A stretch of 64,000 bases of DNA from Candidatus Aminicenantes bacterium (lineage in GTDB: Bacteria; Acidobacteriota; Aminicenantia; Aminicenantales; UBA4085), in NCBI GenBank assembly GCA_963848835.1, contig CAWKFB010000007.1, positions 6,366 to 70,365 of the forward strand. Direction: 5' to 3'. The position numbers were made by a program, and so were the translations under genes. The notes beneath the pieces are model-generated. The model was not told where the DNA came from. It worked only from the letters and a program-made list of their open reading frames with translations, and did no database searches. This document shows positions 17,225 through 60,727 of the stretch, piece after piece. Within the stretch, counting starts at the first letter, position 1. Each line of letters begins with the position of its first letter.

Positions 17225-18114
17225 TGGTCCCGCTCGTCATCCAAGGCCTATCGAAGCGTTTCGGCCCGATCCGCGCCCTCGACGGCGTGAGCTTCTCGGT
17301 CGAGGCGGGAGAGGTCTTCGGCTATCTCGGGCCGAACGGGGCGGGCAAGACGACGACCCTGCGCATCGTCCTCGGCCTCATCCATGCCGGGGCCGGCTCC
17401 GTCCGCGTTTTCGGGCAGGATCCCAAGGAGGTCCGTTCGCGTCTCGACGTCGGATACCTTCCCGGCGAGGTCCGGCTCTACGGCGACATGAGCGGCGACG
17501 CGATCCTCGACCACTTCGCCGGCTTCCGGCCCGCCAAGCCCCCGCGCCTTCGAGCGACGCTCGTCGAAGCCCTCGGCCTGGTCCCCTCGGACCTGGGGAG
17601 GCCGGCCAAGTTCCTCTCCCACGGAACCCGGCAGAAGATCGGCCTCGTCGCGGCCATGCAGCACGATCCCTCCCTCCTCCTCCTCGACGAGCCCACGACG
17701 GGACTCGATCCCCTCGTCCAGTCGGCCTTTCGCGCCCTGATCCACGGTTTCGCCTCGCGCGGCCGCGCCGTTCTGTTTTCGTCCCATGTCCTGTCCGAGG
17801 TCGAATCCGTATGCGCCCGGGTCGCGATCCTGCGTCAAGGGAAGATCGTGACGGTCGATACGATCGAAGACCTTCGGGCCCGGACGCTGCGGAGACTCGA
17901 AGTCCGGTTCAAGGGAACCGCGCCGTCCGGTCTGGATTCCGTTCCGGGGATCGCCCGGGCGGAAATCCAGGGCTCCACGGCCTTGTTGTGGGTCCGCGGG
18001 GACGTCAATCCCGTCCTCCGCCGCATCGCCCAGGCCGATGTCGAGCGCTTCGTCTTTCCCGAGGCCGAGCTCGAGGACATCTTCCTGGCTTTCTACGAAA
18101 AAGGGGCCGCCTGA
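17225..18114 (+). CDS. ABC transporter ATP-binding protein
   Basis: Walker A GPNGAGKTT, signature LSHGTRQKIGL, Walker B LLLLDEPTTGLD, H-loop. GTG start after AAAGGAG. Confidence 0.8.
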
Positions 18115-18127
18115 CGCCGGGCCCGCC

Positions 18128-18925
18128 ATGAAGAACCTCTGGAAGCGCCTGCTCGGCCGCCGGTGGACCTTCCTCGCGGTTTCGACGGCCGTCTTCGCCG
18201 GGTTCGAATTCCTGATCTGCGCCGTCGTCGCGGGCATCGACCTTCCCGCCTTGTTCGCCGAGGTTTCGAAGAATTTCCCGCCGGCGATGAAGGGCCTCAT
18301 CGAGCAGTACATCGGCGGCTTCGGACCCGCGGACCTCCTTGCGTTCGCCTGGAATCATCCGGTGGTCCTGGCCGCCGGCGGCGCCGTCGCGATCGTTCTC
18401 GCCTCACAGGCCGTCGCCGGAGGGATCGAAGAGGGGACGCTCGAGCTCGTCCTCGGCCAGCCCATCTCCCGCGGCCGGTACTTCGCCGCTCATGCCGCCT
18501 TCGCCGGGGCGGCGCTCGCGGCGATGAGCCTGGCCGGTGTGGGGGCGATGATCCTCGGCCAGCGCGTCTACCATCTCAGAGCCGTCGGCGCCGCCTCCAT
18601 CCTCCTCATGGCCGCGAGCTTCTTCCTCCTCCAGCTGACATGGTTCGCCGTGACCCTGTTCCTCTCGGCGTTCGGCCGGACGGCCGGCCGGGTGTCCTTC
18701 GCCGGCTTCCTGCTGGCCCTCCTGTCCTATCTGGCCCACACTGTCGGCCAGCTCTGGCCCAAGGCCGCCTTTCTCGTGCGATATTCCGTGAACGGATATC
18801 ACGACCCCCGGTCCATCGCGAGATCGGGGGGGATCCCCGCCGGTTCGATCGCCCTCTTTTTCCTTCTGATCGCCGTTTTCCTGGCCTTGGCGCTCTGGAA
18901 ATTCGAGCGCCGGGACATTCCCTGA
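18128..18925 (+). CDS. ABC-2 type transporter permease
   Basis: Six predicted TM helices, immediately downstream of the ATPase. Confidence 0.7.
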   Translation: MKNLWKRLLGRRWTFLAVSTAVFAGFEFLICAVVAGIDLPALFAEVSKNFPPAMKGLIEQYIGGFGPADLLAFAWNHPVVLAAGGAVAIVLASQAVAGGIEEGTLELVLGQPISRGRYFAAHAAFAGAALAAMSLAGVGAMILGQRVYHLRAVGAASILLMAASFFLLQLTWFAVTLFLSAFGRTAGRVSFAGFLLALLSYLAHTVGQLWPKAAFLVRYSVNGYHDPRSIARSGGIPAGSIALFFLLIAVFLALALWKFERRDIP

Positions 18926-27962: not shown

Positions 27963-28184
27963 CGGGATCAGTTCTTAGTTATCCCCCTTGAAATTCAGCG
28001 GGGGGCAAAAGGACGGCGGGAGAAGGCGCCGCCTTAGGCGGGCGAAGAGCCGAAGACGCCTCCACACCTCTCCCGCGACGTTGAAGATTGCCCAGGACGT
28101 CCCCGGATTTTCTTATTGATTTCTAACCCCCGGCCCCCTTGCGACAAACAAGGGGGAATTGTCGACGTCCTGGGAGATGTGGGA

Positions 28185-28256
28185 TGGGCGATACTGGATT
28201 TGAACCAGTGACTCCTACCGTGTGAAGGTAGTACTCTGCCGCTGAGTTAATCGCCC
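28185..28256 (-). tRNA. tRNA-Val (anticodon CAC)
   Basis: Reverse complement GGGCGATTAACTCAGCGGCAGAGTACTACCTTCACACGGTAGGAGTCACTGGTTCAAATCCAGTATCGCCCA: 7 bp acceptor stem, anticodon stem CTACC/GGTAG, loop TTCACAC, T loop TTCAAAT; CCA not encoded. Confidence 0.75.
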
Positions 28257-28355
28257 AGCCGGCGTTAAAATAGCATTTTTCCCCGGGCGACACAATATCG
28301 CTTCCTGCCCCCTAAAGCGTTGACTTTGCCCTTGTTTCCCCCTATAAATAAGGTA

Positions 28356-31695: not shown

Positions 31696-31723
31696 GAAAA
31701 CGGATCTTCAGGCTTTTCGAGTC

Positions 31724-31760
31724 GTTCCCCCTCTTTGAAAAAGAGGGGCCAGGGGAGATT
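31724..31760 (+). terminator. rho-independent terminator (for DUF1848 gene)
   Basis: CCCCCTCTTTGAAAAAGAGGGGG hairpin followed by a T-rich run (GATTTTTCGTTTTGTTTT). Confidence 0.6.
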
Positions 31761-31965
31761 TTTCGTTTTGTTTTATTGGGCAGGGCCGCAAGCCCTGCCC
31801 ATGGGGGGTCAGCGAAGCGCCGAGGGGGCGCCAGCCTCCTGGGAGCATTCCGTTCCTAAAAACTAAATAATAAAAGGAACGGAATGCGCATCCCCCCTGA
31901 ATCCCCCTTTGCAAAGGGGGAGAACATTTCCGTTGCCCACACAAAAGCCCGGAAGGACCGAAGAA

Positions 31966-45965: not shown

Positions 45966-46004
45966 CAGGGGGGACGGTCCTTGAACCGTCCCCCCTTTTT
46001 TTGT
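45966..46004 (+). terminator. rho-independent terminator after groEL
   Basis: GGGGGGACGGTCCTTGAACCGTCCCCCC followed by TTTTTTTGTTG. Confidence 0.85.
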
Positions 46005-49370: not shown

Positions 49371-49731
49371 CGGGAGCGCTCCTTCCTGATGATCCAATAT
49401 AGGGCGGCAACGGCTTCTTGTCAATTTAATGAATAAAGCACAAGAATCCAAAAATATGGATGAAATTCAAATAAATGGATAGTAAAGGGGCGATTTGCTT
49501 TTGTAACTAATTGAAAACAAACACAATTATCCATTTATTCGGCCCCCTGGGGGTTGGCATGTTTTTTGCGATAAAAGGGGTGATATCCAAAGGCAATTAT
49601 TATGTTTTATCCGATCATACAAGGAGGTGAGAATAGAAGGAATTTCGTCCAAGGACGAAGGTCCGGGACGGAGGCCGCAAAGGATTCCGTTCCGGGGGGT
49701 TTTGAATTGGAGAAAAGGAGAGTTCAATCGA

Positions 49732-52700
49732 ATGAGCATTCTTAAGAAAAGCGTTTTCACGCTGCTCTCTCTCGCCTTGATCGCGTCCTTCGCGGTGGCC
49801 CAGACGCCGACCGGAAGGATCACGGGCAAGGTGACGGATGAGCAGGGCGTGTCCCTGCCGGGCGTGACGGTCGAAGCGACCAGCCCGCGCCTGGTGGGCA
49901 CCGCCTCCTCGATCACGGACGAGTCCGGAACATACCGGCTCCTCGCTCTCCCGTCGGGGACCTACACCATCACGTTCTCGATGCCGGGCTTCAAGCAGAA
50001 GATCCGTACGGGCATCATCCTGCAGCTCGAGCAGACCCTGAGCCTGAATGAGACCCTCACTCAGAGCGCGGTTGCCGAAGAGATCACGGTCGTCGGGCAG
50101 AGCCCGCTGATCGACGTCAAATCGACGACCAAGGGCACGACGATGTCCAAGGACGTCTTCATGCAGCTGCCCCGCAGCCGGAACTTCCAGGGACTGCTGT
50201 CCACGGTTCCAGGCGTCCAGACCGAAGGCATGCAGGGCGGATTGTCCGTCGACGGCGCCTCCGGAACAGAGAACGTCTACTATGTTGACGGGACGAACGT
50301 TTCCAACATCCACAACGGCCTCGTGGTGCAGGGCGGCGTGGTCATGGAGCAGCTCGAGGAAGTCAAGGTTACGGCTTCCGGGTACAGCGCCGAGTTCGGC
50401 GGCTCCATGGGCGGCGTGATCAACGTCATCACCCGGTCCGGCGGAAACGAGTTCCACGGCGACATCTTCGGGTACTACAACAACAATAGTCTCCTGTTCC
50501 AGGGGAAAGACCGCGACTATCTGCGGATCAACCCCTACTGGGAGAACCCGCTGGACGCCGCGGATATCGAGTACGTCAACGACGACGACATCTATTACAA
50601 CGGCGGTAAAGACCGCAACAACTACCAGAGGTTCGAAGGCGTCTTCAACCTGGGCGGGTACGTCATGAAGGACAAGCTGTGGTTCTTCGCCTCCTTCAAC
50701 CCGACCTACGGCAGCACGACCGCCAATCGCTGGTTCATGACCGACCCGGTCAATCTGGCCGCGGCCAAGGTTCCGGGCGACACGAGGCAAGACCCGCAGC
50801 AGGGCCGCCAGACCTACGAGTTCGCCAGCAAGAACCTCTATCTCTACTGGCAGGCCAAGCTGACCGCGCAGCCGTTCAAGGGCATGCGCGTGTCCCTGTC
50901 CGGCGTCAGCAACTTCTCCAGGTCCTTCGGCGGTGAAATCCCCTCGATCGCCGGGACGTCCGCCAAGAACTATCCGTGGAACAGGGGCTGGGATAACACC
51001 ATTCTTCCCGGCAAGGAATCCCGCTGGGGCTATCCCAACATTTCCGGTAACCTGACCGCGGACTGGACCGTCAGCAACAACTTCCTGGTCAGCCTGCGCG
51101 GCGGCTACCAGAGGACCAACACGACCGGCCAGGAAATGGTCATGCCGACCACCCGGTACGCGTTCTCCGGCTCGAACACCTCGACCACGACGTACCCCGA
51201 GATCCCGGACAGCCTCCGGCACTCCTCGGGCTGGACGAACTGGTCGGCCTCGATGTACGAGTACAAGAAGTGGATCTACGGCCGGGCGAGCGTCAACCTC
51301 GACATGACCTATTACTTCAGCATCGCCGGCGAGCACGCGATCAAGTTCGGCGCCCAGTTCATCCGGCCCTTTGAGGATGTCGACGCCTCCTCGGCCCATC
51401 CTTACGTCACCGTGGTCTGGGGCAACTACTACCAGTGGCCCGACGGCCAGAAAGTCCAGGGCAAGTACGGCAACTACCAGATCCGGGGAAGCTTCGTTTC
51501 GCCCTACGGCAACTTCTGGGCGATTCACAGCGACAACTGGGCCCTTTACCTCCAGGATTCCTGGACGATCGGCGACCGCCTGACCCTGAACCTCGGCGTC
51601 CGGACCGAGAGCGAATATGTCCCGGCCATGTCCACGGACACCACGCTCCCCGGTTACTCGGCCAAGCCGATCCAGTTCGGTTTCGACCAGAAGCTGGCCC
51701 CCCGCCTGGGCGTCATCTATGACGTCTTCGGCGACTCCAGCCTGAAGGTCTTCGGCAGCTTCGGGATCTACTACGACGTCATGAAGCTGTACATGGCGGA
51801 AGGCGCGTACGGCGGGTTCAAGTGGTGGACGAGCTACTTCACGCTCGACGACTACGACTTCACCAAGATCGCGGCCAATGGCGATGTCACCGACAAGGCC
51901 AGCCAGACCGCCACGAACACCTACTTCGGCTCCCGCAACTGGCGGACCGGCTCGTTCGAAGCCACCGAGCCCAACATGAAGCCCGTCGCCCAGTCCGAGG
52001 TCTCCTTCGGCGCGGAAAAGAAGCTGACCGAGGAGATCTCCCTCGGCGCCCGGTTCGTCTACAAGCACCTCATCCGCACGATCGAGGACATCGGCTATTA
52101 CGACGCCGACTTCAACGAGCAGTATTTCATCGGCAACCCCGCCGAAGGCAAGGGCCTCCCGGTTTCGCAGGGCGGCATCTTCTCCGACAACTTCTGGCCC
52201 GCCCCCAAGCCGAAACGGGAATACTACGCCCTCAACCTGTCGGTGGAAAAGCGTTTCTCCAACAACTGGCAGGGCGGGTTCAACTACACCTGGAGCCAGA
52301 TGACGGGGAACTACGGCGGTCTGTCGTCCTCGGACGAGAGCGGCCGGAACTCGCCGAACGTCGAGCGGTATTGGGACATGTGGTTCGAGCGCTACGACAT
52401 CCACGGGAAAGCCTATGACGGCATCCTCCCCTCGGACCGCACCCACTACTTCAAAGCGTTCGGGTCCTACGCCTTCCCGTTCGGGCTGACGGTCGGATTC
52501 GTCGGCTACGCCCGGAGCGGCCTGCCGCGGAACACGAACCTGAGCTTCAACGACATGCAGGTGTTCCCGGACGGCTACAACAACCTCGACCAGCGCACTC
52601 CGTTCACGATGTGGGCGGACCTGTATCTTGAGTACAACCTCAGGATCGCCAAGCGCTACACGGTCAACCTCAACGCGACGATCAGCAACGTCACCAACAC

Positions 52701-52911
52701 GTCCACGATTCAGGCTTACTACGACCGGTATAACTACTCCATGCTCCGCCTGACGGACGATGAGCTCCTCGCTCAGGCCACGAACTATGTGGATTGGAAG
52801 CAGCTGGTTGCCACGAAGATCACCGTCAACCCGCTTGACCCGCGCTATGGCATGTGGACCAGCCGGTTCGGCTCCTGGTCCTGGCGCCTGGGCGCCCGGT
52901 TCTCCTTCTAA
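49732..52911 (+). CDS. TonB-dependent receptor-like outer-membrane protein with N-terminal CarboxypepD_reg domain
   Basis: Signal peptide; GRITGKVTDEQGVSLPGVTVEA..GTYRLLALPSGTYTITF (carboxypeptidase-regulatory-like); plug region; ~900 aa beta-barrel; C-terminal ..GARFSF. Confidence 0.8.
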   Translation: MSILKKSVFTLLSLALIASFAVAQTPTGRITGKVTDEQGVSLPGVTVEATSPRLVGTASSITDESGTYRLLALPSGTYTITFSMPGFKQKIRTGIILQLEQTLSLNETLTQSAVAEEITVVGQSPLIDVKSTTKGTTMSKDVFMQLPRSRNFQGLLSTVPGVQTEGMQGGLSVDGASGTENVYYVDGTNVSNIHNGLVVQGGVVMEQLEEVKVTASGYSAEFGGSMGGVINVITRSGGNEFHGDIFGYYNNNSLLFQGKDRDYLRINPYWENPLDAADIEYVNDDDIYYNGGKDRNNYQRFEGVFNLGGYVMKDKLWFFASFNPTYGSTTANRWFMTDPVNLAAAKVPGDTRQDPQQGRQTYEFASKNLYLYWQAKLTAQPFKGMRVSLSGVSNFSRSFGGEIPSIAGTSAKNYPWNRGWDNTILPGKESRWGYPNISGNLTADWTVSNNFLVSLRGGYQRTNTTGQEMVMPTTRYAFSGSNTSTTTYPEIPDSLRHSSGWTNWSASMYEYKKWIYGRASVNLDMTYYFSIAGEHAIKFGAQFIRPFEDVDASSAHPYVTVVWGNYYQWPDGQKVQGKYGNYQIRGSFVSPYGNFWAIHSDNWALYLQDSWTIGDRLTLNLGVRTESEYVPAMSTDTTLPGYSAKPIQFGFDQKLAPRLGVIYDVFGDSSLKVFGSFGIYYDVMKLYMAEGAYGGFKWWTSYFTLDDYDFTKIAANGDVTDKASQTATNTYFGSRNWRTGSFEATEPNMKPVAQSEVSFGAEKKLTEEISLGARFVYKHLIRTIEDIGYYDADFNEQYFIGNPAEGKGLPVSQGGIFSDNFWPAPKPKREYYALNLSVEKRFSNNWQGGFNYTWSQMTGNYGGLSSSDESGRNSPNVERYWDMWFERYDIHGKAYDGILPSDRTHYFKAFGSYAFPFGLTVGFVGYARSGLPRNTNLSFNDMQVFPDGYNNLDQRTPFTMWADLYLEYNLRIAKRYTVNLNATISNVTNTSTIQAYYDRYNYSMLRLTDDELLAQATNYVDWKQLVATKITVNPLDPRYGMWTSRFGSWSWRLGARFSF

Positions 52912-52967: not shown

Positions 52968-53006
52968 CCGGCCCGGCGCCCTTCGGGGCGCCGGGCCATT
53001 TTTTTA
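52968..53006 (+). terminator. rho-independent terminator after the TonB-dependent receptor gene
   Basis: CCGGCCCGGCGCCCTTCGGGGCGCCGGGCC followed by ATTTTTTT. Confidence 0.8.
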
Positions 53007-54126
53007 ATCGGGGGACGTAGCACTCATTCCCCGATTTCGTATAACAAAAATCGTCAGATGGCGGCTTTTATTTCTCTTTATCGGGGGACGTAGCACTTAT
53101 TCCCCAATTTTGTTCTAACAATAAACGTCAGATTGGGGGCTTTTATTTCTCGGGATCGAGGCCCTGGAAAACGGGCGATGTCAAAATCTCCATCCTTCTT
53201 TTCCTTCCCGCCGACTTTGGCGCGAGAGACCGCCCTGCCAGCCTTTCGAGATTTTCGATGAATTCCTTTGATCCAAGCGGCCGTCCTGTTCGCGCGTGGA
53301 GCTTGATCTCTCTTTCGAGTTCAGGTGAATCTTCCGCCTGGAGAAAGAGGGACCAATCCGGAACATCAATGAACTCGCGAATATCCGTCAGCCGGAGAAG
53401 TGATTTCCGCGTTCCGGATACGTGCTCCGCGGCGCTCGACCAGGGATAGTCTTCAGCCTTTTTAACGAGGCCGGCTTTGACCGGATTTCGCTCCGTATAT
53501 CTAACGCAATTGAATAGATAGGCGGCATCCATTGGAAAGGAATGATAACGGCCATCCCAGAGATTGCCGGTCCAGCTCTCCCTGGCGTTGATGATCAGAG
53601 TGTATTTCCTCTTTATTTCCGCAATACATTTGGCGAAGCTTGATTCCGTCTTGGGGATTGCGTTCAGGTGGAAGTGGTTGTTCATAAGGCAATACGCTAG
53701 GAACACGACACCGAATTTCTCTCCGCATTCATCTAAAAGCTTGAGAAAGAGCATTTTATCCGAGTCGAGGATGAAGACGTCGGCTTTATGATTCCCCCGA
53801 TTATAGATGTGAAACGGAACACCTGGGAAAACGACTCTCGCAATTCTGGGCATCGGGTTCATCTCCAGATGTCGATATTGAGCTCAATAAAACGAACGTG
53901 TCCCGGAATGTCAATTTCTCACTCTGGAGACGGAAACAATGGCTATTCATCGAAGGAATATATTGGGCTTCGGTTAGCCCATAATAGATTGATATAAAAT
54001 GAGTTACCTGTGTTAAGCAAAGAATCAGAATTCAACACTCTGGCGGGGTAAAAAGAATCCGAGCAGTGGTTATTACGGCGAGAAGTGATTGACGAAATTT
54101 GCTTACGAAATCGGGGAATAAGTGCT
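53007..54126 (-). mobile_element. REP-RAYT unit: IS200/IS605-like Y1 (HuH) REP-associated tyrosine transposase flanked by REP hairpins
   Basis: Two direct ~72 bp units carry the REP ATCGGGGGACGTAGCACT(C/T)ATTCCCC (53007-53035, 53080-53106). An inverted copy ATCGGGGAATAAGTGCTACGTCCCCCGAT lies at 54098-54126. The block is AT-rich compared with its surroundings. Confidence 0.75.
53143..53862 (-). CDS. REP-associated tyrosine transposase (RAYT, Y1 HuH transposase IS200-like)
   Basis: FHIYNRGNHKADVF..LAYCLMNNHFHLNAIP (HuH motif), catalytic Tyr region ..RYHSF..; 239 aa. Confidence 0.8.
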   Translation of the reverse strand: MNPMPRIARVVFPGVPFHIYNRGNHKADVFILDSDKMLFLKLLDECGEKFGVVFLAYCLMNNHFHLNAIPKTESSFAKCIAEIKRKYTLIINARESWTGNLWDGRYHSFPMDAAYLFNCVRYTERNPVKAGLVKKAEDYPWSSAAEHVSGTRKSLLRLTDIREFIDVPDWSLFLQAEDSPELEREIKLHARTGRPLGSKEFIENLERLAGRSLAPKSAGRKRRMEILTSPVFQGLDPEK

Positions 54127-54137
54127 ACGTCCCCCGA

Positions 54138-56402
54138 TTATTTCTTAATAAGACGCGCGAGCTCGGCGCGGGCGCCGGCGATCTTTTCTTCCGGCTCGCC
54201 CTGCGGCGCCTGGAGGTACTGCTCGAGGCAGCGGATCGCGTCGGCGGTCTGCCCCTTCTCCCGGTAGGCGAGGGCCAGGTTGTACAGCGCGTCGGGATTG
54301 GGCCCCCCGGCGAGGATGCGGTTGAAGCACTCGATGGATTTGTCGAAATTCCGGGTCATCCCGTAGGCGATCCCGAGCTGGCGGAGGAAGCCGATCTCCT
54401 TTGGATAGTCCCGGGAAAGCCTTTCCAGGACCCCGATCGCCTCCTCGAGCCGTCCGCTCGTGGCGAGATTTCCCGCGTAAGCGGTCCGAAGGAACTTGTT
54501 CTCCGGCTCGGCCGCCAATCCCTCCTCAAAATAGGCGCTCGCTTCGGCCTTTTTCCCCGTGTTGTCCAGGATGACCGCGACGGCCGTCAGGGCGTCGATC
54601 GACTTCGGGTTTCGTTGGAGCGCCTCGCTCATCGTCCCGAACGCTTCCTGCGTCCGTCCCTCGACGAGATACGTGTAGCCGAGCCGCAGCAGCAGCGTCT
54701 CGTTCCCCGGGATGCGCTCCAAGCCGAGCTTGAGCGTCGCCACCGCGGCGTCCATCTTCTTCTCCCGGGCCTGGACCAGGGCCAGGCTGACATACGAGGA
54801 CGCGGAAAACGGCCGGAGGCCGACCATCCTTTCATATAGGGCGGCCGCCGTGGCGAGATCGCCTCGGAATTCCGCGTTTTCGGCGTCCTGGTACATTTTC
54901 AGCTCGTCGCGCTTGTCCTTGGGATCGGGCTCGAGGGCCGAAGCTCCGCTCGCGCCCGCCTCCCCGGCTCCCTTATCCGAGAAGCCGACGTATCCGAGCG
55001 AGCGGAGCCGGCTCTCTTCCTCGGCGGTCAGCGTCCTCTTCCCTGAGGCGGCGCCGGGGGCGAGGCTGTCCTTGACCGTCCGGTCGAGCCCGTCGCGCAT
55101 CTCCCGGACGGTCCGCGCCTCCCCGACGATGCGGTTGTCCCGCTCGCCCGGGTCGCGGCCGAGGTCGTACAGCTCCTCCTTGGGGGCGCGGATGTATTTC
55201 CAGTCCTTGACGATGAGCCCGCTGAGCGGAGCCCAGCCGAAATTCTCTCTCGGGTAGTACGTCTCGATATAAGTATCGAGATCGGCCCGCTCCTTTTTCC
55301 GGATGTAGGGGAGAAGGCTCACGCCTTGCGTTCCCTCCGGAGCGGGGCGGCCCATCAGATCGAGAACGGTCGGCATCAGGTCGATCAGCCGGACCCGGGG
55401 CGCGACGACGGCCCCCGCCGGCAAATGCCCCTCGGCCGCCATGATGAGCGGCACGCGGAGCGTCTCGTCGTAGAGGAAGACGCCGTGCCCCCATTCGCCT
55501 TTGTCGCCCAAGCCCTCGCCGTGGTCGCCGGCCACGACGACCACGGTCCGCCCGAGGAGACCGCGGTCGCGGAGCTTGGCCATGACCCGGCCGAAGACGA
55601 AGTCCATGTACGCGATCTCTCCGTCGTACGGCCGGCCGGAGAATTCCTCGCTGTACGGCGAGGGCGGGTTGTAGGGGATGTGGGGATCGAAGAAATGGAC
55701 CCAGCCGAAGAACGGTTCGGCCGGGTTGGCGTCCATCCAGTCCGAAAAGAGGCCGTAGACCTGTTCGGCCCGCCGCTCGGCGTTCGCCGCCTTGAACGGC
55801 GATCCTTCCTGGTAGTTGTCGTCGTAGTGGTCGAAACCTTGGGCCAGCCCGAAGCGCGAATCCACCGAGAACGAGGCGACGAAGGCCGCCGTGGCGTAGC
55901 CGTCGGCCTTCAGGACCTCGGCCAACGTCGTCCGGTCCGCCGCAAGCTCATACGCGCCGTTATTATGGACGCCGGTCGCGACCGGGTTCTGCCCGGTCAT
56001 GATCGAGGCGTGGCTCGGGAGCGTCAGGGGGACCGGGGCGTAGGCGTTGGAAAAGCGCACGCCGGACGCGGCCAGAGCGTCGAGATTGGGCGTCTTGACT
56101 CCCGCCGCCCCGTAGCATCCCAGATGGTCGGCCCGGGTCGTGTCGAGGGTGATGAGCAGGACGTTGAGGCGCTCCCCGCGGCTGACGGCCGGGCCCCCGC
56201 GGAGAAGGAAGAAAGCCGCGATCGCGGCCAGGATCAGGACGGCCGCGATGCCTAGGGAAGCTGTTCTTCGCGGCGGGCGCTTTCCGGCCGGCGCGGGAGC
56301 GGGGGCCGGTCCGGACGCGCGGACGGCCGGCTTGGGCCCATCGGGGCGGGGCCCCTCCGTTCGGTCCGGCCGGCGCGGCTTGTGGTGCTTGCGTTTCGCC
56401 AC
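54138..56402 (-). CDS. sulfatase-family hydrolase (alkaline-phosphatase superfamily) with C-terminal TPR repeats, membrane-anchored
   Basis: TM helix; LNVLLITLDTTRADHLGCYG.., SHASIMTG, GDHGEGLGDKGEWGHG; C-terminal ~300 aa of TPR. Confidence 0.8.
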   Translation of the reverse strand: MAKRKHHKPRRPDRTEGPRPDGPKPAVRASGPAPAPAPAGKRPPRRTASLGIAAVLILAAIAAFFLLRGGPAVSRGERLNVLLITLDTTRADHLGCYGAAGVKTPNLDALAASGVRFSNAYAPVPLTLPSHASIMTGQNPVATGVHNNGAYELAADRTTLAEVLKADGYATAAFVASFSVDSRFGLAQGFDHYDDNYQEGSPFKAANAERRAEQVYGLFSDWMDANPAEPFFGWVHFFDPHIPYNPPSPYSEEFSGRPYDGEIAYMDFVFGRVMAKLRDRGLLGRTVVVVAGDHGEGLGDKGEWGHGVFLYDETLRVPLIMAAEGHLPAGAVVAPRVRLIDLMPTVLDLMGRPAPEGTQGVSLLPYIRKKERADLDTYIETYYPRENFGWAPLSGLIVKDWKYIRAPKEELYDLGRDPGERDNRIVGEARTVREMRDGLDRTVKDSLAPGAASGKRTLTAEEESRLRSLGYVGFSDKGAGEAGASGASALEPDPKDKRDELKMYQDAENAEFRGDLATAAALYERMVGLRPFSASSYVSLALVQAREKKMDAAVATLKLGLERIPGNETLLLRLGYTYLVEGRTQEAFGTMSEALQRNPKSIDALTAVAVILDNTGKKAEASAYFEEGLAAEPENKFLRTAYAGNLATSGRLEEAIGVLERLSRDYPKEIGFLRQLGIAYGMTRNFDKSIECFNRILAGGPNPDALYNLALAYREKGQTADAIRCLEQYLQAPQGEPEEKIAGARAELARLIKK

Positions 56403-56412
56403 GGGGCGGCGG

Positions 56413-57378
56413 TCACTTCTTGACGGCGTTCAGGATGTTTTGGGCCAGCGCGGCCCGCGGCCCCTCCGGCTCGAGGGTCAGGAACTTCTCGAGGCTCTCG
56501 ATGGCCTTGGGGTTGTCGGCTTTGTTGAGGTAGACATAGCCGAGCTTGAGGTACGGGTCCGGCCAATCCGGCTTGATCTGGGCGGCCAAAGCGAAATACT
56601 TGAGGGCGTCGTCGAACGCCTGGTTCGAGAAGTAAATCTCGCCGACATTGTAGGCGAGGATCTCGTCCTTCGGGGAGTTCTCGATGGACTGGCGGAAAAG
56701 GTCCTGGGCTTCGGTCATCTTGCCCTGCTTCAGGTAGCAGTTGCCGATCCCGGCCAGGGCCTTGGCCGTCATCTCCCTGCCCAGGGTCACGTCGAGCTTG
56801 GCCTGTTCCACCACGGCCTTGTACGTCTCGATGGCTTTCTCGAAGTCTCCCTTCTCCCGGTAGCAGTCGCCGATGCTCAGCTGGACCTGGTAGAGGTTCG
56901 GGTTTTTGCTCAGGAATTCCTGGTAGGCCGCGATGGCTTCGTCGAACTTCTGTTCCTTGAAGAGCGCGTTGCCCTTCTCGAGGATGGCGAAGGTGGCTTC
57001 GTCGGCAACGACGCCCGCGCCCTTGGTGATCTTCTGGAGATGGACCACGACCTTCGGGTTCACCGAGAGCTGGCTGACGTACAGCGTCTTGTCCTGGGGC
57101 ATGTAGCCCGTGATCACGGCGGTCATGGTCCAGTTGCCCGTGCCGAGCCCAAGGAAGGACCATTCGCCCTTCTTGTTCGACGTCGTCTCGAACTTGAGGC
57201 TGGGGTTGTCCGCGAACTGCAGGGTCAGCTTGACGCCCTCGAGCGGCTTCTCTTCGAGGTCGTAGACGATCCCGCCGAGCCGTCCGACGCCCCGTCCGGC
57301 CTGGCCGAAGGCCAGGCCTCCGGCGAGGAGAAGGATCGCCGCCAGAGCCGCTATGGTCTTCCGGGAGTGATGTTTCAT
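56413..57378 (-). CDS. secreted CarboxypepD_reg-like domain + TPR repeat protein
   Basis: Signal peptide; GIVYDLEEKPLEGVKLTLQ.. beta-sandwich, then TPR-like AYQEFLSKNPN.. repeats. Paralog of the 63038..63958 protein. Confidence 0.65.
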   Translation of the reverse strand: MKHHSRKTIAALAAILLLAGGLAFGQAGRGVGRLGGIVYDLEEKPLEGVKLTLQFADNPSLKFETTSNKKGEWSFLGLGTGNWTMTAVITGYMPQDKTLYVSQLSVNPKVVVHLQKITKGAGVVADEATFAILEKGNALFKEQKFDEAIAAYQEFLSKNPNLYQVQLSIGDCYREKGDFEKAIETYKAVVEQAKLDVTLGREMTAKALAGIGNCYLKQGKMTEAQDLFRQSIENSPKDEILAYNVGEIYFSNQAFDDALKYFALAAQIKPDWPDPYLKLGYVYLNKADNPKAIESLEKFLTLEPEGPRAALAQNILNAVKK

Positions 57379-60628: not shown

Positions 60629-60727
60629 GTTGGTCTCCCGGTCAAACCGCACGGGGGCCTGGGGACATGATTCCATGTCCCCCGGAGCCCGTTGGTATAA
60701 CTCCCGCCGGAAGGCGAACGGTTGCGT

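Follow-up and report, generated by a model that had tools for sequence, protein, structure and literature searches.

Does a low-GC block that carries a gene for a tyrosine transposase between hairpin-like repeats mark a recent insertion, or something that has long been resident? The question is raised by positions 52970–54140, read directly, within a 64-kb stretch of DNA from a Candidatus Aminicenantes bacterium (contig CAWKFB010000007.1; the whole stretch is hereafter referred to as the window). Tyrosine transposases associated with repetitive extragenic palindromes (REPs), known as RAYTs, and RAYT-like enzymes form with their repeats a long-standing puzzle; their genes are domesticated and widespread. 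To our knowledge, almost no biochemistry exists beyond that of E. coli TnpA-REP, and none for the TIRYT branch discussed below. A previous reading of the locus from its sequence alone (the sequence-only reading) took it for a canonical REP–RAYT unit, present as an AT-rich insertion. We conclude, with a probability of roughly 0.7, that the locus is a TIRtron: a single-copy, vertically inherited TIRYT gene lying within cognate inverted repeats of ~37–55 nt, whose enzyme acts in trans on short doublets of the same repeat.

The closest homologues of the encoded protein (55–76% identical) were placed on their contigs. Five genomes besides that of the window share a slot in which the Y1 gene lies between a gene for a TonB-dependent receptor and a sulfatase-TPR gene: L001, L002/L003/L004, L005, L006 and L007. 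L002, L003 and L004 are three independent assemblies of one species, and L007, an NCBI Aminicenantes metagenome-assembled genome, is the outgroup.

The Y1 enzyme and its branch

The gene occupies positions 53143..53853 of the minus strand and encodes 236 amino acids from an ATG at 53853. Read instead from the in-frame ATG at 53862, a longer open reading frame (ORF), 53143–53862(−), would reach 239 amino acids; homologues support the start at 53853, and a 236-aa protein in a public collection (P0001) is 100% identical. Residue numbers below follow the 239-aa version. The HFHL motif named in the sequence-only reading is present as H63-F-H65-L, and the Pfam model Y1_Tnp (PF01797) matches the protein with 38.5 bits, above its gathering cut-off of 23, as it does all 42 aligned homologues. 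The HUH residues H63 and H65 and the catalytic tyrosine Y122 are invariant, or nearly so, in the 42 homologues. The only sequence relative in PDB is E. coli TnpA-REP (4ER8), on which H63-F-H65 falls on H59-M-H61 and Y122 on the catalytic Y115. The alignment check that had been proposed for the catalytic residues therefore found none of them lacking.

An AlphaFold (AF2) model computed from the 42-homologue alignment reached a pLDDT of 90. Its best fold match was again 4ER8 (E 7e-9, TM 0.75 on target), followed by the TnpA proteins of IS608 and ISDra2. Judged by alignment and model, the fold and the catalytic residues of the enzyme are intact. The protein carries a helical C-terminal extension of ~95 aa that ends in a basic GRKRR tail; in the model, residues ~140 to 210 form a small four-helix region without a separate PDB match. 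None of the C-terminal Pfam helix-turn-helix domains Bac_DnaA_C, HTH_23 and HTH_28 was found at E<=1 in the 42 members.

Protein sequences of published TIRYTs were taken from Additional file 5 of Di Nocera et al. 2013. Over its full length the window protein is 44% identical to G. sulfurreducens GSU2396 (E 8e-66) and 37% identical to K. versatilis aba2776 (E 3e-52); its identity to the E. coli RAYT is 25% over 110 aa (E 2e-09). The best NCBIfam model, the equivalog REP_Tyr_transpos (NF047646), scored 62.1 bits, below its curated cut-off of 80. Because of the end-to-end identity of 44% to GSU2396 and this failed cut-off, the protein belongs to the TIRYT branch of RAYT-like Y1 HUH enzymes.

The same comparisons bear on the possibility that the locus is a canonical REPtron after all, with a true RAYT (TnpA-REP) and GTAG-type REPs abundant genome-wide as bacterial interspersed mosaic elements (BIMEs). 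That the closest solved structure and sequence is 4ER8 and that REP_Tyr_transpos is the best NCBIfam model agree with it, as do the inverted hairpin repeats that flank the gene and the REPIN-like doublets of sister genomes, described below. The NCBIfam score, however, is under the cut-off, and the short, 25% match to the E. coli RAYT compares poorly with the full-length match to a TIRYT. In E. coli the GTAG guide is bound by Q95 and R104, neither of which is conserved in the alignment with 4ER8. Together with the repeats, which point the same way, this makes a canonical REPtron unlikely. Of the canonical REP–RAYT claim there remains an intact Y1 HUH gene bracketed by inverted, hairpin-capable repeats; the assignment of the enzyme does not stand, since it goes to the TIRYT branch.

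TIRYT genes, located in TIRtrons, were described by Di Nocera, De Gregorio & Rocco (2013, BMC Genomics 14:522), who found a GGGGWSAS motif in the repeats of many, not all, of them; their examples include GSU2396, aba2776 and C. crescentus CC1445. Quentin, Siguier, Chandler & Fichant (2018, BMC Genomics 19:475) equated their TnpA_Y1 subclass 2.1 with TIRYTs, 20/26 published ones falling in it, and detected nothing REP-like in the vicinity of its genes. We infer membership of the window protein in subclass 2.1 solely from those 20 of 26; if a member, it would be 2.1.1. The large RAYT "Group 1" of Bertels et al. 2017, in which flanking 16-mers are only slightly enriched, may be the same group as TIRYTs.

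A protein-alignment scan of GTDB representative genomes returned more than 555 relatives from many phyla. The GC content of the Y1 gene in this wider family is ~45–60% across phyla, whatever that of the host (L026–L105, 38 loci with full flanks): it is up to 0.17 below the flanks in GC-rich hosts and up to 0.12 above them in AT-rich ones. The composition of the gene appears to be buffered, or the gene frequently transferred.

Terminal repeats and gene-less doublets

The window was searched with the 29-mer ATCGGGGGACGTAGCACTYATTCCCCRAT, tolerating up to 3 mismatches. Exactly three sites were found in 64 kb, with 0 expected: 53007–53035(+), 53080–53108(+) and 54110–54138(−). The outer left and the right copies belong to a 37-nt inverted repeat that is 97% complementary (53005–41/54104–40) and encloses the gene. 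The left (outer) arm, 53005..53041 (+), has the sequence TAATCGGGGGACGTAGCACTCATTCCCCGATTTCGTA with its hairpin-capable core at 53007–53035; weaker similarity continues to ~53060 and includes an ATCGTCA sub-motif. The right arm, 54104..54140 (−), has its core at 54110–54138. If lower identity is accepted, the inverted repeat reaches about 53–56 nt (about 53 nt at roughly 85%) and contains ATCGTCA; L005, L001 and the gene-less doublets have this longer arm as well. The inverted copy had been predicted at 54098–54126; it exists, but 12 nt further to the right.

The inner direct copy, 53078..53113 (+) with its core at 53080–53108, is partly decayed. Two direct units on this flank had been expected at a spacing of ~72 bp, and they were found 73 nt apart (53007–53079 and 53080–53152), 82–86% identical (D1 86%, D2 82%). 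The 3′-terminal 9 nt of the ORF (TTATTTCTC) fall within the inner unit; the inner copy is therefore the product of a local 73-bp tandem duplication. No tandem repeat was called here by TRF, and the duplication rests on the repeat search of the locus.

In its core, CGGGGGAC..ACTCATTCCC, the window repeat is a local form of the GGGGWSAS repeat that is seen throughout the family. The conserved head of the repeat is GGGGGACG, a variant of the TIRYT motif, and the window arm (GGGGACGT) matches GGGGWSAS at 6/8 positions. Arms of the clade follow the consensus TAATCGGGGGACG-N4-AC-TC-R-TT-Y-CCCGATTTCG. Flanking inverted repeats of 33–54 nt were present at all seven homologous loci examined, the non-syntenic L008 included. 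In the wider family, clear flanking inverted repeats were seen at 30/59 loci across many phyla (loci with both flanks available), with a consensus, AATTCCGGGGACA[CG]nATACTTAATT, that corresponds to the GGGGWSAS motif of Di Nocera 2013. A full match to the motif is found in L008 and in 18 of these 30 repeats, and GGGGWSR in 23/30; L029 and L030 have arms (CGGGGGACACAATACTCATTC.C) almost equal to the window arm.

Among in-group genomes the arm core is ~83% identical and the adjoining leader is unalignable. The two arms of one genome are 85–97% identical, closer to each other than orthologous arms are, a likeness that indicates concerted evolution. From the conserved positions, the probable recognition sequence is TAATCGGGGGACG-N4-ACTCRTTYCCCGATTTCG plus an ATYGTCA sub-motif.

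Each copy can form an 8-bp stem with a 15-nt loop (−6.9 to −7.1 kcal/mol as DNA, z about −2.4; −13 to −14 as RNA). The inner copy folds poorly (−3.3 kcal/mol, z −1.1), its stem being broken by a G>A change. Stem pairing is retained in 84% of the cells of the arm alignment, and a hairpin is plausible. It is not the canonical REP hairpin of the sequence-only reading: there is no GT[AG]G foot, and the GTAG of the window falls within the loop, in the variable N4, where orthologous arms have GAGA, GTGG, GTAA or GACG. This displacement and replacement of GTAG also counts against a canonical REPtron.

Copies of the repeat away from the gene were found in other genomes. The generalised pattern TCGGGGGACGNNNNACTYNTTNCCCG occurs on 17 stretches in JGI metagenomes, and the Y1 protein is encoded on 0/17 of them. 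Most of the 17 are head-to-head inverted doublets of 90–130 nt, with two arms that carry the ATYGTCA sub-motif; one folds into a stem of 33 bp without mismatches (−65.8 kcal/mol, z −12.5). The doublets derive from the ends of the cassette and are REPIN- or MITE-like. Gene-less doublets of the sister genomes sit at gene 3′ ends. The doublet L017:7208–7297 shares a 124.5-kb contig with the L002 Y1 gene, from which it is ~21 kb distant. Its position is precisely between the stop codons of two convergent genes, and the sequence of its core equals that of the L001 arm core. L002 also has a solitary repeat copy at 17357–17382. The window site orthologous to the L017 doublet, 31696–31964, likewise separates two convergent genes; it is ~265 nt long and has no cassette repeat; several unrelated hairpins are seen there, e.g., GCATTCCGTTCC...GGAACGGAATGC and GGGCAGGGC...GCCCTGCCC.

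A 38-nt position weight matrix (PWM) was built from 41 copies. The three local copies scored 48–60 bits, and the best score elsewhere in the window was 6.6, compared with 4.7 in shuffled sequence. Apart from that, two weak echoes came from the opposite strand of the local copies, with scores of 9.2 (left outer arm) and 1.6 (right arm). A weak match at 18814 lies inside a coding region and was rejected as a copy. The GroEL terminator at 45968–45995, GGGGGGACGG-TCCTTGAA-CCGTCCCCCC with a T-run, shares the GGGGGACG head and was judged to be an ordinary intrinsic terminator. Dispersal of the repeat was thus seen in related genomes, which have gene-less doublets, and not within the 64 kb themselves. 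An E. coli-like density would give several further copies in 64 kb where there are zero, which is another difficulty for a canonical REPtron. The sister contig has ~2 extra sites per 124 kb, and the lack of any in the other ~63 kb of the window is therefore unremarkable.

Other palindromes were also observed. In the window, a perfect hairpin GGGGACATG-ATTC-CATGTCCCC (60661–60682) lies in a ~100-nt spacer between a PHP_C-like gene and a GWxTD/TPR gene, and the solitary L002 repeat occupies the orthologous spot. Hairpins of the GGGGACATGATTCC type are also found at L016:6710 and nested within doublets of L010, L020, L023 and L025; possibly they are a second, related palindromic family. On these last four metagenome contigs the elements are composite and nested: cassette-type repeats make up the outer pair, and the palindrome between them, GGGGGACGTGATACCCTGCCACC / GGGGACAGGGAATCACGTCCCC, has a GGGGWSAS head of its own. 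L009:1454–1702 and L013:5455–5703, from a different organism, each hold 3–4 variant repeats (TTCGGGGGACGTTTAACTTATTTCCC) in ~250 nt in mixed orientation, a BIME-like arrangement. Next to the solitary L002 copy, at 17410–17580, GGGGTCGCGTCTACAAATTTCAATTTTT and its complement stand ~90 nt apart; this inverted repeat of ~27 nt is unrelated and looks like another small palindromic element.

Residence, composition and rival explanations

Between orthologues the Y1 gene differs at 0.13–0.28 of non-synonymous sites (pN) and at 0.73–0.83 of synonymous sites (pS), the latter saturated; dN/dS is ~0.05 where computable. The gene is under strong purifying selection. With its low pN beside saturated pS, it is functional and anciently resident. 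The divergence of Y1 broadly tracks that of its neighbours, L007 being the most distant for all three genes. The block has a GC content of 0.478 compared with 0.61 and 0.66 in its flanks, i.e., 14–18 points lower, and every orthologous cassette is similarly low (0.47–0.52 vs 0.59–0.66). GC at third codon positions (GC3) of Y1 is 0.46–0.68 among orthologues (0.585 in the window), compared with 0.87–0.90 in the neighbours (in the window, 49732–52911, 54138–56402 and 56413–57378). Since low GC is common to all orthologous cassettes, it is a stable property of the cassette and no mark of recent arrival. The AT-rich part of the previous claim is therefore correct; recent insertion is contradicted by the same slot in five relatives.

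The cassette exists in two forms. In the long form (window, L001, L005, L006) the gene points towards TonB, the cassette measures 1.08–1.19 kb and a leader of 250–290 nt is present. The short form (L002, L007) has the gene in the opposite orientation, measures 827 bp and lacks the leader, a compact arrangement that is usual in the wider family. In the window the AT-rich 5′ leader, placed by alignment and cassette lengths, extends ~250 nt from the right arm to the start codon (53854..54103, −); leaders are poorly conserved and have no conserved ORF. A single inversion in the long-form ancestor would suffice if L002 branches first; otherwise two inversion events are needed, and four-taxon distances are nearly star-like. 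There was no sign of phase variation, the L002 species having one orientation across its three independent assemblies.

Several observations weigh against the TIRtron reading. Neither the 29-mer search nor the PWM found a repeat copy outside the locus in the 64-kb window, and the exact core GGGGACGTAGCACTNATTCCCC had 0 matches in GTDB representative genomes and 0 in JGI metagenomes; activity in trans is therefore putative for the window's own genome. The arms around the L002 gene are unlike the copies dispersed elsewhere in the L002 genome. Covariation in the hairpin (14 arms) was not significant, with 1 compensatory pair and 89/500 shuffles reaching the observed score, and the family-wide consensus keeps sequence more than pairing; recognition could therefore be of double-stranded DNA. 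The TIRYT literature (Di Nocera 2013; Quentin 2018) reports no biochemical test of any TIRYT. Finally, genome pairs in which Y1 pS is 0.73–0.83 have neighbour pS of only 0.18–0.52 (window vs L002: Y1 0.78, TonB 0.18, sulfatase 0.43, TPR 0.38), and Y1 GC3 has not approached the host value. Simple vertical descent alone leaves the excess of Y1 pS and its GC3 unexplained. Part of the contrast is an artefact: with so extreme a GC3 bias the neighbours saturate at a lower level, and TonB reaches only 0.46 even against the far outgroup L007. The Y1 values may stem from relaxed codon bias, from local hypermutation or from cassette replacement.

Replacement is at the centre of a rival explanation, in which the cassette is site-specifically mobile or replaceable, has repeatedly been excised and re-inserted or horizontally exchanged at this one slot beside the conserved TonB terminator, and owes its shared position to target specificity. 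Two orientations and two length forms in one slot would follow naturally, and the pS and GC3 contrasts also speak for it. Orientation and leader length, on the other hand, fit a single ancestral rearrangement, and the pS contrast is confounded by the depressed values of the neighbours. Groupings in four-taxon tests differ, the flanks pairing the window with L002 and Y1 pairing it with L005; the internal branches of both tests are, however, only ~1.5–1.7% long (identity units). A family-wide gene GC near 50% whatever the host fits frequent transfer, whereas the position of L007 as the most distant genome for Y1 and both neighbours does not fit replacement, nor does the one orientation of the L002 species. 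In L002 an extra ATCGGGG stub stands before the arm on the TonB side; it agrees with this explanation and, speculatively, could be the footprint of a replacement-type event. On balance, we regard a mobile or replaceable cassette as rather improbable.

We hold it similarly doubtful that the Y1 enzyme flips or re-inserts its own cassette at the slot, acting as a site-specific single-strand recombinase on two identical inverted ends. Such self-flipping would jointly explain the two orientations, the homogenised arms, the L002 stub and the failure of pS and GC3 to track the neighbours.

A recently inserted, active insertion sequence (IS), either IS200/IS605-like or a novel one bearing terminal inverted repeats, could be read from the Y1_Tnp domain, the inverted repeats and the GC deficit. 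It is very improbable and was rejected on account of the syntenic slot in relatives: the same locus is occupied in five related genomes at saturated synonymous divergence, the low GC is common to all orthologues, the window has one occurrence and no tnpB partner, and IS200/IS605 ends are dissimilar sub-terminal hairpins rather than inverted repeats. The comparison of orthologous loci that the sequence-only reading had called for accordingly contradicts recent insertion. It is just as hard to believe that the repeats are 3′ untranslated region (UTR) stabiliser or terminator hairpins of the neighbours that bracket the ORF by chance: the arms adjoin the TonB terminator and the sulfatase stop codon, dispersed doublets lie at gene 3′ ends and the RNA folds are reasonably stable, but neighbours cannot explain the repeats because the same motif flanks homologues at unrelated loci and in unrelated phyla, at a similar distance from the gene.

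The surroundings of the cassette are as had been described, between the terminator of the TonB receptor gene and the sulfatase-TPR gene. The TonB-dependent receptor ORF, 49627–52911 (+), is followed by an intrinsic terminator at 52970..52997 (+), with a 12-bp GC stem and a T-run, and the left arm begins right behind this T-run in all orthologous loci. The sulfatase-TPR gene, 54138..56402 (−), is the conserved right neighbour; its stop codon is the outermost TAA of the right arm (54138–54140). An Rfam scan of the window gave only two tRNAs and no other RNA family. The only RNA genes of the window by Rfam/ARAGORN are tRNA-Arg(CCT) at 108–184 and tRNA-Val(CAC) at 28182–28257. The sole promoter-like site in a promoter scan of the locus lies inside the ORF, at chance frequency.

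Proposed mechanism and comparison with known systems

With the TIRtron as the preferred reading, a mechanism can be proposed by analogy with IS608, ISDra2 and E. coli TnpA-REP, whose chemistry is established. In this Aminicenantes lineage the repeat core has become self-complementary (AATCGGGG...CCCCGATT), hence its REP-like look. On single-stranded DNA the protein would recognise the repeat that contains GGGGGACG, probably folded into a hairpin, nick it or the adjoining DNA through a 5′-phosphotyrosyl intermediate (Y122, with the metal at H63/H65) and rejoin it. Short doublets may in this way be copied or moved in trans, and the enzyme's own gene would stay put. Recombination between the inverted arms would flip the cassette and keep the arms alike, and the extra left direct copy would stem from the local 73-bp duplication. 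A secondary 3′-UTR role of the hairpins for neighbouring genes is possible.

The locus and its relatives provide a comparative series of six syntenic cassettes, the window's included, in two orientations, with co-evolving arms and with matching doublets on the contig of one orthologue. At least one TIRYT lineage is thus associated with REPIN-like elements, unlike the result of the 2018 survey. A milder corollary of the self-flipping cassette, if true, is that a TIRYT branch reported without REPs is turning its terminal repeats into a REPIN-like population; such a TIRYT would be a natural intermediate from an IS with inverted ends to a REP/RAYT system. There is also a lesson for annotation: low GC together with a "transposase" label is not, here, a sign of recent mobile insertion.

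Compared with the TnpA of IS200/IS605 elements (IS608, ISDra2), the enzyme has the same HUH/Y1 fold and presumably the same single-strand cleavage and ligation chemistry. Those proteins are 130–155 aa long and belong to multi-copy mobile elements whose sub-terminal hairpins differ between the left and the right end and which often include tnpB, whereas the window cassette is single-copy, has matching inverted ends and keeps a fixed location in six genomes.

The RAYT/TnpA-REP enzymes with their REPINs (Nunvar 2010; Bertels & Rainey 2011; Ton-Hoang 2012) include the closest solved structure, E. coli YafM (4ER8), and share with our locus a single-copy vertical gene, inverted repeat copies and, in extragenic 3′ regions, gene-less inverted doublets. 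The differences lie in the core identity of 25%, the sub-cut-off NCBIfam score, the missing GT[AG]G foot and the extra C-terminal domain of ~95 aa. Repeat density is also far lower, with none in the window's other ~63 kb and ~2 extra on the 124-kb sister contig.

The long TnpA-REP-like protein with a conserved C-terminal extension is shared with TnpA_Y1 subclass 2.1. Unlike subclass 2.1 in Quentin 2018, the arms here are hairpin-capable and sister genomes hold dispersed doublets; unlike subclass 2.1.2, the reported Bac_DnaA_C, HTH_23 and HTH_28 domains were not detected in the 42 members.

The closest likeness is to the TIRYT/TIRtron. The proteins align end to end, including the C-terminal H.RTGRPLG...F...LE...GR.L.P.K.GR motif, and long inverted repeats with a GGGG[AT][CG]-type head lie close to the gene. 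In Di Nocera 2013 the gene is usually single-copy, and the repeats are in some genomes moderately abundant and arranged as dimers. Unlike a typical TIRtron, the window arm matches 6/8 of GGGGWSAS and has a GC-rich, 8-bp self-complementary stem, and the cassette has a ~250-nt leader and an extra direct arm copy. An Aminicenantes-like host, synteny across species and an orientation flip go beyond that description. The locus is no new kind of system; it is an ordinary member of the described TIRYT class.

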